Below, one piece after another: positions 4,077 to 12,091 of a DNA stretch of 64,000 nt. The first letter of the stretch is position 1, and each line of letters begins with the position of its first letter. This DNA comes from an uncultured Gemmatimonadales bacterium (GTDB lineage Bacteria; Gemmatimonadota; Gemmatimonadetes; Longimicrobiales; RSA9), in NCBI GenBank assembly GCA_963708135.1, contig OY970192.1, positions 3,392,001 to 3,456,000 on the forward strand, written 5' to 3'. Both the position numbers and the translations under genes were made by a program. The notes beneath the pieces were generated by a model. The model was not told where the DNA came from. It did no database searches and worked only from the letters and a program-made list of their open reading frames with translations.

Positions 4077-4784
4077 CTACTCCTGCGGCTCTTCCGGGGA
4101 CGCGGCTTCGGCCTCGCGCTGCTCGGAGCGGTGCTTGATGGTGCGGCCCTCGACGAGGAAGACCACGTCCTCGGCGATGTTGGTGGCGAGGTCGGCGATG
4201 CGCTCGAGGTTGCGGGAGGCCAGGAACCAGTCCATGCCGGCGGTGATCTTGCGCGGGTCCTCCATCATGTGGGTGAGGAGGATGCGGAATACGTTGTCGT
4301 GCAGCTCGTCGACGCGGTCGTCGCGGCGGCCGATGTCGCGGGCGAGTTCGCTGTCGAGGCGGATGAAGCTATCGAGCGAGTCGGCGAGCATCTCGGTGGC
4401 GAGGCGGACCATCTCCTCGATCTCGGGGAGCGGCGGGAAGGGGGCCGCGCCGGCGATGTACTCGACCTCCTCGGCGATGTTGACGGCGTGGTCGCCGACG
4501 CGCTCGAGGTCGTTGGCGATCTTCATGGCCATGGTGATGAAGCGGAGGTCGCGGGCCATCGGCTGCTGGAGGGCGAGCAGCTGGATGGCGAGCTCCTCGA
4601 CCTCGACCTCGAGGGCGTCCACGGCCCGGTCGCGGCGCATCGCCTCGGCGGCCAGCTCGGGGTCGCGGTCGAGCAGCGCGCGGACGGCCAGCTTGACCAT
4701 CTCCTCGGCCAGCCCCGCCATCCCCACGAGGCGGGACTGGAGCTTGTCCAGCTCGACGTGGAAGTGCCGCTGCGCCTGTGGCAT
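4077..4784 (-). CDS. phoU: Phosphate signalling complex protein PhoU
   Basis: QQPMARDLR, NDLERVGDHAVNIAE, NLERIADLATNIAEDV repeats. Confidence 0.95.
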   Translation of the reverse strand: MPQAQRHFHVELDKLQSRLVGMAGLAEEMVKLAVRALLDRDPELAAEAMRRDRAVDALEVEVEELAIQLLALQQPMARDLRFITMAMKIANDLERVGDHAVNIAEEVEYIAGAAPFPPLPEIEEMVRLATEMLADSLDSFIRLDSELARDIGRRDDRVDELHDNVFRILLTHMMEDPRKITAGMDWFLASRNLERIADLATNIAEDVVFLVEGRTIKHRSEQREAEAASPEEPQE

Positions 4785-5560
4785 TATCCGAACCTCCCGG
4801 TGATGTACGCCTCGGTGCGGGGCTCGCGCGGGTTCGTGAACAGCGCCTCGGTGGCGCCGTACTCGACGAGGTCGCCCAGGTAGAGGAACGCCGTCAGCTC
4901 CGAGACCCGGGCGGCCTGCTGCATGTTGTGCGTGACGATGACGACGGTGTACTCCTGCTTCAGCTCGAAGATGAGGTCCTCGATCTTCTGCGTGGCGATC
5001 GGATCGAGCGCGGAGGCGGGCTCGTCCATGAGGATCACCTCCGGCTCGACCGCGAGCGCACGCGCGATGCAGAGGCGCTGCTGCTGCCCGCCGGACAGCG
5101 AGAACGCGCTCTGGCCGAGCCGGTCCTTCACCTCGTCCCAGAGCGCGGCGCGCTCGAGCGAGCGCTGCACCACCGCATCGAGGTCCACGCGCATCCGGTT
5201 CACGCGCGGCCCGAACGCCACGTTCTCGTAGATCGAGCGCGGGAACGGGTTCGGCTTCTGGAAGACCATGCCGATGCGGCGCCGCACCTCGACGGGGTCC
5301 ACCGCGGGGTCGTAGAGATCGACGTCGTCGAAGCGGATGCTCCCCTCCACCCGCGCGCCCGGGATCAGGTCGTTCATGCGGTTGAAGGAGCGCAGCAGCG
5401 TGCTCTTGCCGCACCCGGACGGCCCGATGAACGCCACCACCCGGCGCTCCGGGATGGCGATGGAGACGGACTTCACCGCCTGCGTGCTGCCGTAATATAC
5501 GGAGAGGTCGATCGCCTCGAGCGCGGTCGGCCCCGTGTCGTCGTCCTGCCGCGTCGCCAC
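4784..5560 (-). CDS. pstB: Phosphate ABC transporter ATPase PstB
   Basis: [41 protein letters not shown] start after a GGAGGAG RBS. Confidence 0.95.
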
Positions 5561-5759
5561 CCTGTGCTCCTCCCCTCGATCGAATGCCGCGGCCGCGACG
5601 GGATCGGCTCCCGCCGCCGCCGTCCGAAGCCCCGGAGGCTGACGATCACGTGCGCCCCGCGCAAGACTCCATCGACTGGCGCTCGGCGGACCGGTCCTCG
5701 TCCCGTCCTCGTCGTCTGGCGATGAATGGCGGAACGGCGGCGGCGCCGCAAGCCGCGCC

Positions 5760-6137
5760 TCAGTGCCGGCTGGCCGGGAGCTCGAAGGAGAGGGCGAGGT
5801 CGGGGTCCGTGAAGAGGGCGTCGTCGGGGTCGCAGAAGGCTCGCAGCGGGTGGCGGCGCAGCAGCCGCAGGAAGGCCGCGGCGAGGCCGTGGATCTCCAC
5901 CTGCGCGCCCTCGGCCTGCTCGCGCTCGAGCGCGCTGGAGAGCATCTGCGCGCCGACCGGGTCGATCCCGTCGAGGCCGGACGCATCGAGCAGTACCCGC
6001 CGCACGCCCCTGCGGCGGCGCAGCAGCCCGGCGACCGAGCCGGCCAGCCCGGCGTCGAGGCGGCCGGAGATCCGGGCGGCCAGGGTGCCTCCGGAGAGGG
6101 CCACGACGGTGCAGACGGTGGGGTGCGAGCGCTTCAC
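5760..6137 (-). CDS. STAS-like (anti-sigma antagonist-like) small protein
   Basis: ISGRLDA...[15 protein letters not shown] pattern of STAS domains. Confidence 0.55.
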
Positions 6138-6215
6138 GGGGCGGAACCTCCTGCAAGGGATCGGGTCACGCCCGGAATCTGGGGCGGCTCCGTCACGTCG
6201 GGAGCCGGAGGTTCG

Positions 6216-10303: not shown

Positions 10304-11425
10304 TCAGGCGGCGACGGCGCGATCCGCGCGCGCCCGCACAAGGCGCGCGACCGCGACCGCCGCGTCCGCCCGTCCGAGCGCGGCGGCGCGGGCCGCGAGC
10401 GCCCGGCCCGGCGCCGGCTCGGCGAAGAAGCGCCGGAGCATCGCCCGCAGCATGTCGCCATCCGGGGCGGCGATGGCCGCACCGGCGCCGATGAGGACCG
10501 CCGCATTGCCCTCCTCGTGGCCGGGCACGCCGCGGGTCAGGATCAGCGGCGTGCCGACCGCCAGCGCCTCGCTCGTGGTGAGGCCGCCGGGCTTGGTCAC
10601 GACCACGTCCGCGGCGCGCATGAGCCGGTCGATGTCCTTCACGTACCCGAGCGGCGTCAGCGCCGGGCCGGCCCGGCGCGCGACCAGCCGCCGCCGGGCC
10701 GCATCGTTGCGGCCGCACACCGCCAGCACCCGCAGCCCGGGCACGCCGGAGGCGAGGGCCGCGTCCACGGCCTCCTCGACGGCGAAGCCGAGGCCGCCTC
10801 CCATGACGAGCGCCACGGGCCCGCGCCGCTCGAGGCCCAGAGCCCGCCGGGCCGACTCCCGGTCCGGACTCGCCGCGAACCGCGCGGAAAGCGGGATCCC
10901 GGTGACGTCCACGCTGGCCGCCACGCCCCGCGCCCGGAGCTCCCGCGCCAGCGCCGGCAGCGCGACGAAGTACTGCGCCACGCCCCGCTGCACCCAGTAG
11001 CGGTGCAGCGTGAGATCCGTGACCACCAGCGAGAACGGAGGCATTCCCGGCCGCCCGGCACCGAGCTGGCACGGCAGGAAGTGCGTGCACACCACTGCCT
11101 CCCAGCGGCCCGAGCGGACCAGCCGCCGGAAGCGCCGGAACAGCACCCGCTGCGCCACCCCGCCCCAGGCGGCCGTGTCCGGCCCGCGGCCGTCCGTGCA
11201 CGCGTAGATCTCCGCCCAGAGCCCCGGCGCCCGCGCCGCAATCAACTCGTAGCCGCCGCCGTACGCCGCCGCCAGCCAGCGCGGCGCGAGGGCCAGTATG
11301 TCCACGTGCTCCACCGGCCGCCCCGGCGACTCCGCCGCGAACGCCTCCCGCAGCGCCTCGCCCGCCCGCACGTGCCCGGTGCCCGCGCTGCCCGAAACAA
11401 TGAGGATGCCTCGATCGGCCGTCAT
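10304..11425 (-). CDS. MGDG synthase / UgtP-like diacylglycerol glycosyltransferase (GT28)
   Basis: GTGHVRAG, CTHFLP, VVTD...HRYW, VTGIP, TKPGGLTTSEA, PGHEEGNA. Confidence 0.9.
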   Translation of the reverse strand: MTADRGILIVSGSAGTGHVRAGEALREAFAAESPGRPVEHVDILALAPRWLAAAYGGGYELIAARAPGLWAEIYACTDGRGPDTAAWGGVAQRVLFRRFRRLVRSGRWEAVVCTHFLPCQLGAGRPGMPPFSLVVTDLTLHRYWVQRGVAQYFVALPALARELRARGVAASVDVTGIPLSARFAASPDRESARRALGLERRGPVALVMGGGLGFAVEEAVDAALASGVPGLRVLAVCGRNDAARRRLVARRAGPALTPLGYVKDIDRLMRAADVVVTKPGGLTTSEALAVGTPLILTRGVPGHEEGNAAVLIGAGAAIAAPDGDMLRAMLRRFFAEPAPGRALAARAAALGRADAAVAVARLVRARADRAVAA

Positions 11426-11469
11426 GGTCGCCTCCCCGGCTCCCGGTTCGTCCGCAATCTCGCCGGCGG

Positions 11470-11500
11470 CCATCACGGACGGGTCACGGTGCGGTAAAAC
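11470..11500 (+). promoter_or_regulatory. Pho-box-like 11-bp direct repeats
   Basis: ATCAC 11472, GTCAC 11483, GTAAA 11494. Confidence 0.5.
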
Positions 11501-11638
11501 GTTGCGCGGTCGAGCGGAAACGATCCCCCGAACCCCTGGCTCCCACCCGCCCCTCCGCTTACCTTGCCGCCGCCGCACGCGCCGCGGCCCGCGGGCGCCG
11601 CGCCCCGGTTCGCCCCCGCCACGGAGCCTCAGGCGACG

Positions 11639-12091
11639 ATGCTGCCGCACGCCTTCTTCCTCCTCGGCCTGCTCGCCACCTCCGCGGCCTTCGCGCTCCT
11701 CGAGATCCAGATCGAGGACGGCCACGGCTGGGCCGGCGCGCTGCCGACCTGGCGCTTCGAGAACCGCTGGACCCGCCGCTTCCTCGGCGCCCGCCCGATC
11801 ACGGGCTACCACCTCTTCATGCACGTCCTCGTGCTGCTCCTCGCGCACCTCGCCTACTTCGTGGGCGTGCGGCCGATGCTCCGGCTCGAGGCGCGGATCC
11901 TCGCCTTCGTCATCCTGTTCTGGATCCTCGAGGACTTCCTCTGGTTCATCTTCAACCCCGCCTGGGGGCTGCGCCGATTCCGCCGCGCCGAGATCCCCTG
12001 GCACGCCCGCTCCTGGTGGTGGATCATGCCCCGGGATTACTGGATCTTCCTACCCGTGGCGGGGCTGCTGTACTGGCTCGGCTGGCGGTGA
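11639..12091 (+). CDS. Hypothetical Trp-rich membrane protein
   Basis: About 4 TM segments; EIQIEDGHGWA, TGYH, EDFLWF motifs; typical codon usage. Confidence 0.8.
   Translation: MLPHAFFLLGLLATSAAFALLEIQIEDGHGWAGALPTWRFENRWTRRFLGARPITGYHLFMHVLVLLLAHLAYFVGVRPMLRLEARILAFVILFWILEDFLWFIFNPAWGLRRFRRAEIPWHARSWWWIMPRDYWIFLPVAGLLYWLGWR

Follow-up and report, generated by a model that had tools for sequence, protein, structure and literature searches.

Introduction

Why should genes for lipid metabolism stand directly beside the phosphate regulators phoB and phoR in a Gemmatimonadota genome? The question is raised by a locus at positions 4,077 to 12,091 of a 64,000-nucleotide stretch of DNA from an uncultured Gemmatimonadales bacterium (GTDB Longimicrobiales, RSA9; GenBank assembly GCA_963708135.1, contig OY970192.1, positions 3,392,001 to 3,456,000 of the forward strand). 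This whole stretch is referred to below as the window. The locus carries genes for a PAP2 lipid phosphatase, for a protein resembling zinc-dependent phospholipase C (the PLC-like protein) and for a glycosyltransferase of the GT28 type. Our comparative analysis of the sequence indicates that these three genes probably serve to exchange the phospholipids of the membrane for sugar lipids once phosphate is exhausted, and we consider it reasonably likely that the locus is a PhoB-controlled membrane-lipid remodelling module of Gemmatimonadota.

The replacement of phospholipids by phosphorus-free lipids is a major means by which microbes save phosphorus. It is known mainly from Proteobacteria, where it is based on PlcP. 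The PlcP-Agt system, in which PlcP is a metallophosphoesterase and Agt a GT4 enzyme, remodels the membrane during phosphate starvation in Sinorhizobium, SAR11, Phaeobacter, Pseudomonas and Burkholderia. Gemmatimonadota are abundant in soils; among sequencing runs, no RNA run carries the window DNA, and a single soil metagenome has a small share of its words. Our literature search, based on listings and abstracts, found no paper tying Zn_dep_PLPC proteins or Gemmatimonadota to phosphate-dependent lipid remodelling, and no paper on the phosphate-stress response of Gemmatimonadota. Papers that name the PF00882 family, to which the PLC-like protein belongs, concern toxins, genome surveys or domain databases in the portions available. 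In the available part of one report, plcP-agt operons are described as having the genes for an intracellular phospholipase and a diacylglycerol (DAG) glycosyltransferase in one row behind a Pho box, converting phospholipids to glycolipids (PMC4796936); a second report, in its available part, concerns Agt and OlsF only (PMC5193443). The initial annotation of the window had proposed a PlcP-independent version of this pathway, in which an unrelated enzyme of the zinc-PLC fold, together with PAP2, supplies DAG to a GT28 glycolipid synthase.

Results

Genes of the locus

The G+C content of the window is about 73%, and gene calls were therefore made from third-position GC, followed by Pfam and NCBIfam scans of the called proteins. 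The locus consists of a minus-strand row phoB-phoR-STAS-pstB-phoU, the PAP2 gene divergent from phoB, and an operon of the GT28 and PLC-like genes that is convergent with PAP2. The genes are as follows.

4077..4775 (start approximate), minus strand: phoU, last gene of the phoB-phoR-STAS-pstB-phoU row; Pfam PhoU 165.5 bits, TIGR02135 214 bits (cut-off 130.25)
4784..5560 (start approximate), minus strand: pstB; TIGR00972 386.6 bits (cut-off 343.2)
5760..6137, minus strand: gene for a 125-aa STAS-domain protein in the interval between phoR and pstB; Pfam STAS_2 33 bits, STAS 27.9 bits
6216..7730 (start approximate), minus strand: phoR-like PAS/HisKA/HATPase sensor kinase, by Pfam
7733..8449, minus strand: phoB-like response regulator, ATG at 8449 after AGGAG; top match TIGR02154 (PhoB)
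8889..9404, plus strand: PAP2 lipid phosphate phosphatase, 171 aa; Pfam PAP2 77 bits
9445..10296, minus strand: PLC-like protein with a predicted zinc-PLC/P1-nuclease fold, 283 aa, translated from a TTG, downstream gene of the operon; Zn_dep_PLPC 31.5 bits (cut-off 26.8)
10304..11425, minus strand: GT28 glycosyltransferase resembling UgtP and MGD1, 373 aa, first gene of the operon; MGDG_synth 52.2 bits, Glyco_tran_28_C 33.5 bits

The initial annotation had set PAP2, a Zn-PLC-like gene and an MGDG/UgtP-like glycosyltransferase gene beside phoB, phoR, pstB and phoU. The Pfam and NCBIfam calls confirm all seven genes at these places, with the Zn_dep_PLPC, MGDG_synth and PAP2 models each finding their match. 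Since 7 nucleotides (nt) separate the stop codon of GT28 from the TTG with which the PLC-like gene begins, the two genes are probably co-transcribed.

Of the phosphate genes, pstB and phoU exceed the cut-offs of the most specific models, and the phoB-like and phoR-like genes do not. The phoB-like protein reaches 250.1 bits against TIGR02154, below the equivalog cut-off of 296.2, and its orthologues, 66-82% identical, are present in most of the 60 other family genomes. The top NCBIfam models for the phoR-like kinase are PnpS (301.5 bits) and phoR_proteo (261.2 bits, cut-off 334.2), both below cut-off. The phoU gene is the sole PhoU locus of the genome, which is a single contig of 5.45 Mb. No pstSCA adjoins pstB here; about 150 kb separates it from pstC, pstA, a second ABC ATPase gene, pstS and a Porin_O_P gene, which resembles phosphate porins. 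The STAS gene (5760-6137, minus strand), absent from the initial annotation and without a match in the NCBIfam scan, occupies the slot where some relatives carry pstSCA.

Conservation of the neighbourhood

Does the association of these genes recur in other genomes? A search with a seven-sequence alignment of the PLC-like protein yielded 40 loci with a relative of the gene, 38 labelled Gemmatimonadota and 2 Planctomycetota, whose neighbours were scored with a tblastn panel. Because of the query alignment, this set is biased to one peptide pattern and to Gemmatimonadota. The counts were as follows.

GT4 glycosyltransferase near the PLC-like gene: 19/40 loci
GT28 near the PLC-like gene: 2/40 loci
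PAP2 in the locus: 18/40 loci
Co-oriented row PLC-GT4-PAP2: 10/40 loci
PLC-like gene directly followed by PAP2: 4/40 loci
PhoU within the locus: 6/40 loci
phoB-phoR..pstB-phoU directly upstream of the PLC-like gene: 3/40 loci
Ppx/GppA adjoining the PLC-like gene: 3/40 loci
LPG_synthase_TM (flippase-like) gene near the PLC-like gene: 6/40 loci

The operon running from GT28 to the PLC-like gene is found in four genera, represented by the window genome (G000) and by G003, G008 and G049. In two of these genomes, G008 and G003, a few genes separate the operon from pst-phoU, and the flanking genes are those of the window. GT28 adjoins PAP2 in four other genomes (G053, G041, G063 and G011), the order in G011 being GT28-PAP2-phoB, and in 6 of the 29 family loci PAP2 is divergent from phoB as it is in the window. 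Directly before the PLC-like gene, each of the two Planctomycetota loci carries a PAP2_3 gene. One of these pairs, in a Mariniblastus metagenome-assembled genome (L052:2313-3779, plus strand), is followed by a TIR-domain gene.

Presence was counted in one fixed set of 61 family genomes. GT28 was present in nine of them, and seven of these nine carry the PLC-like gene too; two genomes, both with the PLC-like gene, have the orthologous GT4. The window genome has no orthologous GT4, its best match being 31% identical. Since GT28 is present there and the orthologous GT4 absent, the two transferases seem to replace each other, and GT28 appears to stand in for GT4 in the same context. The GT4 partners are nearest to the models of N-acetylglucosaminyl (GlcNAc)-phosphatidylglycerol synthase and alpha-monoglucosyl-DAG synthase, below the cut-offs of both.

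These comparisons support the view that the genes for the PLC-like protein, a lipid glycosyltransferase and PAP2 form a conserved mix-and-match neighbourhood in Gemmatimonadota, often beside phoBR or pstB-phoU.

A second GT4 gene was observed near the PLC-like gene in several genomes. At loci L015, L026, L027 and L042 its product scores 275 bits with the model of GlcNAc-phosphatidylglycerol synthase, whose cut-off is 480, and it is paired with an LPG_synthase_TM gene, which hints at an additional lipid head-group system within this neighbourhood.

The PLC-like protein

What kind of enzyme is the PLC-like protein? It exceeds the Pfam gathering threshold of PF00882 by a few bits, and the scores of six relatives lie at 32.8-53.3 bits. 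Its identity to seven homologues from related genomes is 30-41%, and six of the seven start with Met-Pro. An exhaustive profile search gave 1174 representatives at E <= 0.001, of which 219 at E <= 1e-30, with a length of about 300 aa; among the matches listed, the match begins at residue 1 in most of 150 representatives. A word-indexed protein search returned the query and one relative only, and is too insensitive for such a GC-rich protein. The NCBI label of one family member is 'zinc dependent phospholipase C family protein', and seven other clusters that were looked up carry no informative name.

Thirteen positions are invariant in an alignment of 112 sequences: P2, H7, G41, D46, G48, H62, G88, W89, H92, D96, H100, H128 and E132. 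When compared by hhalign with a canonical secreted Zn_dep_PLPC paralogue (92.7%, E 4.3e-07), the His, Asp and Glu columns fall on identical residues, and they presumably correspond to the zinc ligands of Bacillus cereus PLC. This paralogue, which has a signal peptide and scores 69 bits, is encoded in the same genome (G000:C1:1007039-1007956; L001:1039-1956, minus strand). In the sequence of the PLC-like protein itself we found neither a signal peptide, nor a hydrophobic segment, nor a transmembrane segment, and the protein is predicted to be cytoplasmic. It begins with Met-Pro-Gly-Ile-Ala-Val-His, and thus lacks the N-terminal Trp of the mature secreted type. In the secreted zinc PLCs this mature N-terminal Trp is a zinc ligand.

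The AlphaFold2 model of the protein is all-helical and has a predicted local distance difference test score (pLDDT) of 93.3 and a predicted template modelling score (pTM) of 0.92. It was compared exhaustively with 48,161 chains by VIA-align. The best matches were Listeria PLC (Z 7.3), Clostridium alpha-toxin (Z 6.6) and B. cereus PLC (Z 6.2), with 149-156 residues of the zinc PLCs aligned at a root-mean-square deviation of 3.8-4.5. Ranks 4 to 6 were taken by S1/P1-type nucleases (Z 5.4, 5.0 and 4.6), and the next, unrelated chain had a Z of 3.6. Because the Pfam match and the conserved residues combine with these Z values, modest as they are, the model places the PLC-like protein in the zinc-PLC/P1-nuclease fold.

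The fold leaves room for a phosphate-regulated module in which the protein does not produce DAG. It would then be a nuclease of the P1/S1 type, a nucleotidase or another phosphodiesterase, which frees phosphate without feeding the glycosyltransferase; glycerophosphodiesters, phosphoglycolipids or polyprenyl-phosphate sugars could be its substrates. Such a function would fit the S1/P1 nucleases among the top six fold matches, the Pfam score barely above threshold, the Met-Pro that replaces the N-terminal Trp of secreted PLCs, and the PLC-like genes that stand alone or beside Ppx/GppA. However, the PLC chains outscore all three nucleases in the fold search, and the gene recurs in a row with lipid glycosyltransferases and PAP2, with the GT28-PLC operon in four genera and the PAP2-PLC pair in another phylum. 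A free nuclease in the cytoplasm would presumably also be costly to the cell. We consider a nuclease or other phosphodiesterase unlikely, although it is the likeliest of the alternatives, and favour a phospholipase.

The glycosyltransferase and the PAP2 phosphatase

If DAG is produced, is there an enzyme to use it? The GT28 protein matches a processive DAG beta-glucosyltransferase, UgtP (PDB 9wde), at E 2.5e-29 and Arabidopsis MGD1 (4wyi) at E 2.3e-20, whereas the match to MurG reaches merely E 3.8e-06. By sequence homology it is a clear relative of UgtP and MGD1. Against the diglucosyl-DAG synthase equivalog NF010135 it scores 151.1 bits, below the cut-off of 500.

Three hydrophobic stretches run through the PAP2 protein, whose translation shows all three catalytic motifs of PAP2 enzymes, as KRTVTRPRP, PSGH and SRCYLGVHYPGD. 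The general forms of these motifs are K-x6-RP, PSGH and SR-x5-H-x3-D. In the NCBIfam scan its scores were 71.8 bits for SepP (cut-off 250), 43.9 bits for PRK11837 (229) and 31.3 bits for PgpB (261), all far under cut-off. Its substrate may be phosphatidate or another lipid phosphate.

The PAP2 scores also bring in the possibility that the locus remodels the outer envelope and not the bulk phospholipids. In that case PAP2 would dephosphorylate lipid A or undecaprenyl diphosphate in the manner of LpxE, LpxF or BcrC, the glycosyltransferase would decorate an envelope lipid, and the surface charge would shift during phosphate stress. Two of the best PAP2 models, SepP and PRK11837, are indeed undecaprenyl-diphosphatases (the third is PgpB), an LmtA-like gene lies 6 kb off (184.7 bits, cut-off 325), and LPG_synthase_TM genes are near the PLC-like gene at the six loci counted above. 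On the other hand, the MGDG_synth family of GT28 enzymes is known for DAG acceptors, in agreement with the homology to UgtP and MGD1 and the far weaker one to MurG; GT4 and GT28 swap in the same context; and an envelope function leaves no obvious role for a cytoplasmic enzyme of the PLC fold. It is improbable that the locus serves the envelope in this way, and a transferase acting on DAG is preferred.

A candidate Pho box

Are the lipid genes under the control of PhoB? Expectation-maximisation was applied to the upstream 220 nt of the PLC-like genes at 39 loci, the window being excluded. The motif that it yielded, CGGTAC-N5-CGATAC, repeats directly with a period of 11 bp, and at 14 of these loci it occupies positions -95 to -101 relative to the start codon. 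As a two-unit matrix it shows no enrichment in the window genome, and arrays of three to four units, which do stand out there, were therefore scored instead. Three stretches of the locus are concerned.

11467..11499, minus strand: three-unit array TTTTAC-N5-CGTGAC-N5-CGTGAT before GT28, score 15.0, 41 nt from the ATG
8543..8586, minus strand: four-unit array before phoB (CGTGAT, CGTTAC, CATGAC, CTTGAC), four-unit score 16.9
8806..8849, plus strand: weak boxes of 11-bp period before PAP2 (CGTTAC, ATTTAC, CGTCGC, AGTTGC); periods of 11 and 22 in Tandem Repeats Finder (TRF)

On both strands of the 5.45-Mb genome, 17 sites score as high as the GT28 array (15.0 or more), against 5.4 expected by simulation. 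The GT28-PLC operon of G049 is preceded by TTTTAC-N5-CGTGAC-N5-CGTGAC, which matches the window array and scores 18.8. For the four-unit array before phoB, six genome sites score as high and none is expected by simulation; with three units (score 14.4) there are 24 such sites against 5.4 expected. The array at 8543..8586, which the initial annotation had not listed, is a candidate Pho box for the autoregulation of phoB. By eye, the phoB promoters of the window and of the family share an array CGTGAT, CGTTAC, TTGAC, TTGAC. Of 29 family phoB promoters, 22 have the pattern GTTAC-N7-[TG][GTC]AC at -89 to -154 on the strand of phoB, against 5 on the opposite strand; once unpublished genomes are left out, 18 of 25 have it on the strand of phoB.

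The motif was also found, without retraining, before other genes of phosphate uptake. The pstC operon of the window genome has a three-unit array with a score of 17.0 (rank 5 of 44 arrays), the strongest array of the G008 locus, at 24.3 bits, precedes pstS by about 110 nt, and further arrays stand before a pstS region and a pstB. Across the 40 loci the motif gave 30 hits of at least 14 bits, 8 of which fall upstream of GT4, GT28 or PAP2, a space that makes up 0.84% of the sequence, against 0.25 expected, although the P-values of this enrichment are overstated because the related genomes share ancestry. Since the motif recurs without retraining before GT4, GT28, PAP2, phoB, pstS, pstB and pstC, the 11-bp direct repeat is likely the Pho box of this Gemmatimonadota group.

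The PAP2 promoter of the window differs. The initial annotation had seen 11-bp-periodic boxes upstream of both PAP2 and the glycosyltransferase gene. The array before GT28 bears this out, whereas before PAP2 the stretch of period 11 is weak and the repeat that catches the eye has a period of 12 bp. In relatives, the orthologous PAP2 promoters carry strong sites at a similar distance. On the strand opposite phoB, two-unit scores of 14.8-19.3 occur in 7 of the 29 phoB loci, namely the six with a divergent PAP2 gene and L079, which shows no PAP2. The spacer between phoB and PAP2 contains two tandem arrays.

8598..8670: hexamer repeat (ACGGGC)x12, by TRF
8699..8781: 12-bp tandem repeat (GGGCAGGTTCAA)x6.9, by TRF with 97% matches and a score of 152

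The period of 12 means that the GGGCAGGTTCAA array is not of the PhoB type. All six exact copies of this 12-mer in the genome are at this locus, and the repeat is absent from the six relatives that share the phoB/PAP2 arrangement; similar (ACGGGC) runs occur at two other places in the genome. The spacer is 439 bp long here and about 250-270 bp in these six relatives, and the two arrays account for the extra length of about 180 bp.

Many PLC-like genes (loci L022-L051) have a conserved element resembling AGATGTTTCC in their upstream region, about 35-45 nt past the boxes; it may be the -10 region of their promoters. The window carries AGATTGCGG at the matching place.

It might be argued that the position beside phoBR and the boxes are accidental, that the lipid genes are constitutive or otherwise regulated, and that the 11-bp repeats are ordinary GC-rich sequence. 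The lack of genome enrichment of the two-unit motif, the unrelated genes behind most of the top-ranked arrays, the weak PAP2 site and the placement of the module with respect to the pho genes, which differs between genomes, would all agree with a coincidence. Chance does not readily explain, however, the fixed distance of the motif (-95 to -101) in 14 of 39 loci, its recurrence without retraining before phoB, pstS, pstB and pstC, its roughly 30-fold enrichment before GT4, GT28 and PAP2, or the array before GT28 that is kept between two genera. A mere coincidence thus seems very improbable, and control by PhoB is preferred.

Neighbouring genes

Two further genes stand just beyond GT28, and a third some 6 kb away.

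11639..12091, plus strand: divergent gene for a 150-aa protein of no recognized family; no Pfam or NCBIfam match
12176-12580, minus strand: small EVE-domain gene, just past the 150-aa gene, with no evident link to the module
15426-16325, minus strand: membrane methyltransferase gene, 6 kb from the module, resembling Leptospira LmtA

The 150-aa gene was considered as a member of the module and rejected. A 44%-identical counterpart stands in the same divergent position in G049, and the gene was not seen in 40 other loci; it is probably a mere neighbour. LmtA is a lipid A 1-phosphate O-methyltransferase, and the product of the methyltransferase gene in the window may be a further modifier of envelope phosphate.

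Discussion

In this study, we asked what lipid genes do beside phoBR in a Gemmatimonadota genome. The reading that we favour is as follows. When phosphate becomes limiting, PhoB would bind the 11-bp direct-repeat boxes and turn on the operon of GT28 and the PLC-like gene, and probably PAP2 too. The cytoplasmic enzyme of the zinc-PLC fold would cleave the phosphorylated head group off existing phospholipids and so yield DAG. PAP2 would provide additional DAG by dephosphorylating phosphatidate or another lipid phosphate. GT28 would then add a sugar to the DAG to form a phosphorus-free glycolipid, and the released phosphate would be reused. Comparison supports much of what the initial annotation had put forward: the linkage of the lipid genes to phoBR recurs across Gemmatimonadota, a promoter motif is common to them, the invariant His/Asp/Glu set and the fold matches agree with a zinc-PLC-fold protein, this protein has no hydrophobic leader, and the glycosyltransferase is homologous to UgtP and MGD1. 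The boxes before PAP2 are weak in the window.

Several observations weigh against this reading. Regarding the enzyme, fold Z values of 6-7 are modest for an all-helical protein, and the zinc-PLC fold also houses nucleases. A Foldseek search of the model against the PDB gave nothing at E <= 0.001, and a search of PDB sequences with the PLC-like profile gave nothing meaningful (best E 0.088). The models nearest to PAP2 are undecaprenyl-diphosphatases. Regarding regulation, the two-unit matrix has 45 genome sites of at least 14 bits on both strands against about 76 in simulation, the kinship of the genomes inflates the enrichment statistics, and the boxes before PAP2 have a three-unit score of 8.3, which 498 genome sites reach against 719 expected, not above chance. 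Most of the other top-ranked arrays precede genes without an obvious part in phosphate metabolism, among them those for PCMT, a multihaem cytochrome, an LCM methyltransferase and an ECF sigma factor; besides pstC, phoB and GT28, no clear phosphate genes were found among the top-ranked arrays, and a TonB-dependent receptor gene scores 13.8. Regarding distribution, about a quarter of the 40 loci have no panel gene at all, many of them being cut by contig ends. The PLC-like gene is patchy, being present in 14 of the 61 family genomes (including partial matches in the unpublished G015 and G016) and in 4 of 201 genomes sampled across the phylum, where scoring covered a part of the first-look candidates.

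Independence from PlcP is no more than a proposal. The genome has eight matches to PF00149, the metallophosphoesterase family, none of them in the GT28-PLC locus. One, a YaeI/LpxG-like gene (G000:C1:3548313-3549263, minus strand), lies 1.1 kb from the pstCAB-pstS-porin operon, and it is possible that its product is a PlcP-type enzyme. This gene adjoins an aldo-keto reductase gene and an erythromycin-esterase-like gene.

How does the module compare with known systems? It resembles PlcP-Agt in that the genes for a phospholipase-like enzyme and a DAG glycosyltransferase stand in one row (GT28 and the PLC-like gene, 7 nt apart), in the candidate Pho box upstream, here the array before GT28 to which PhoB would bind, and in the GT4 transferase that is the partner in most Gemmatimonadota loci. 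It differs in the phospholipase-like enzyme, which belongs to PF00882 and the all-helical zinc-PLC/P1-nuclease fold and not to the PF00149 metallophosphoesterases, in PAP2 as a regular third member, in the replacement of GT4 by GT28 in the window genome and at least seven relatives, and in the host phylum. Because the phospholipase belongs to another fold, the module is not a strict member of the PlcP-Agt system. Rather, it appears to be a variation on a known logic of lipid remodelling, well supported by comparative genomics.

The single components also have known counterparts. The secreted zinc PLCs (B. cereus PC-PLC, Listeria PlcB and the N-terminal domain of Clostridium alpha-toxin) share with the PLC-like protein the Pfam family, the fold at Z 6.2-7.3 and the His/Asp/Glu set. 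Unlike them, the window protein has no signal peptide, has Met-Pro in place of the mature N-terminal Trp, has some 90 additional helical residues at its C-terminus, is about 10% identical to the solved chains, and is found in a context of membrane-lipid synthesis, not virulence. The window GT28 has the MGDG_synth and GT28 C-terminal domains of UgtP/YpfP and plant MGD1, but it scores below the equivalog cut-off, is predicted to be regulated by PhoB and is paired with a phospholipase-like gene. PAP2 is like the phosphatases PgpB, BcrC/YbjG/SepP, LpxE/LpxF and the phosphatidate phosphatases in its three motifs and as a small polytopic membrane protein; it differs from them in exceeding no subfamily cut-off and in its conserved linkage to phoB, GT4 or GT28 and the PLC-like gene.

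A broader proposal can be made tentatively, as a possibility that falls somewhat short of probable. The cytoplasmic branch of the zinc-PLC/P1-nuclease fold, a fold so far associated with secreted toxins and nucleases, may be a second, independently evolved bacterial enzyme of phospholipid recycling, paired with PAP2 across Gemmatimonadota and Planctomycetota. In Gemmatimonadota it would be under PhoB, together with interchangeable GT4 and GT28 transferases, and would play the role that the unrelated PlcP has in Proteobacteria. PAP2 would be a regular partner in such a module, while PlcP systems are not known to need one.

If the reading is true, Gemmatimonadota would have a gene set and a candidate Pho box for lipid remodelling that are ready for experiment. 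A fold associated with toxins would also serve a housekeeping, intracellular role in lipid metabolism, and the module would be a clean case of non-homologous enzymes recruited into the same pathway by convergent assembly.

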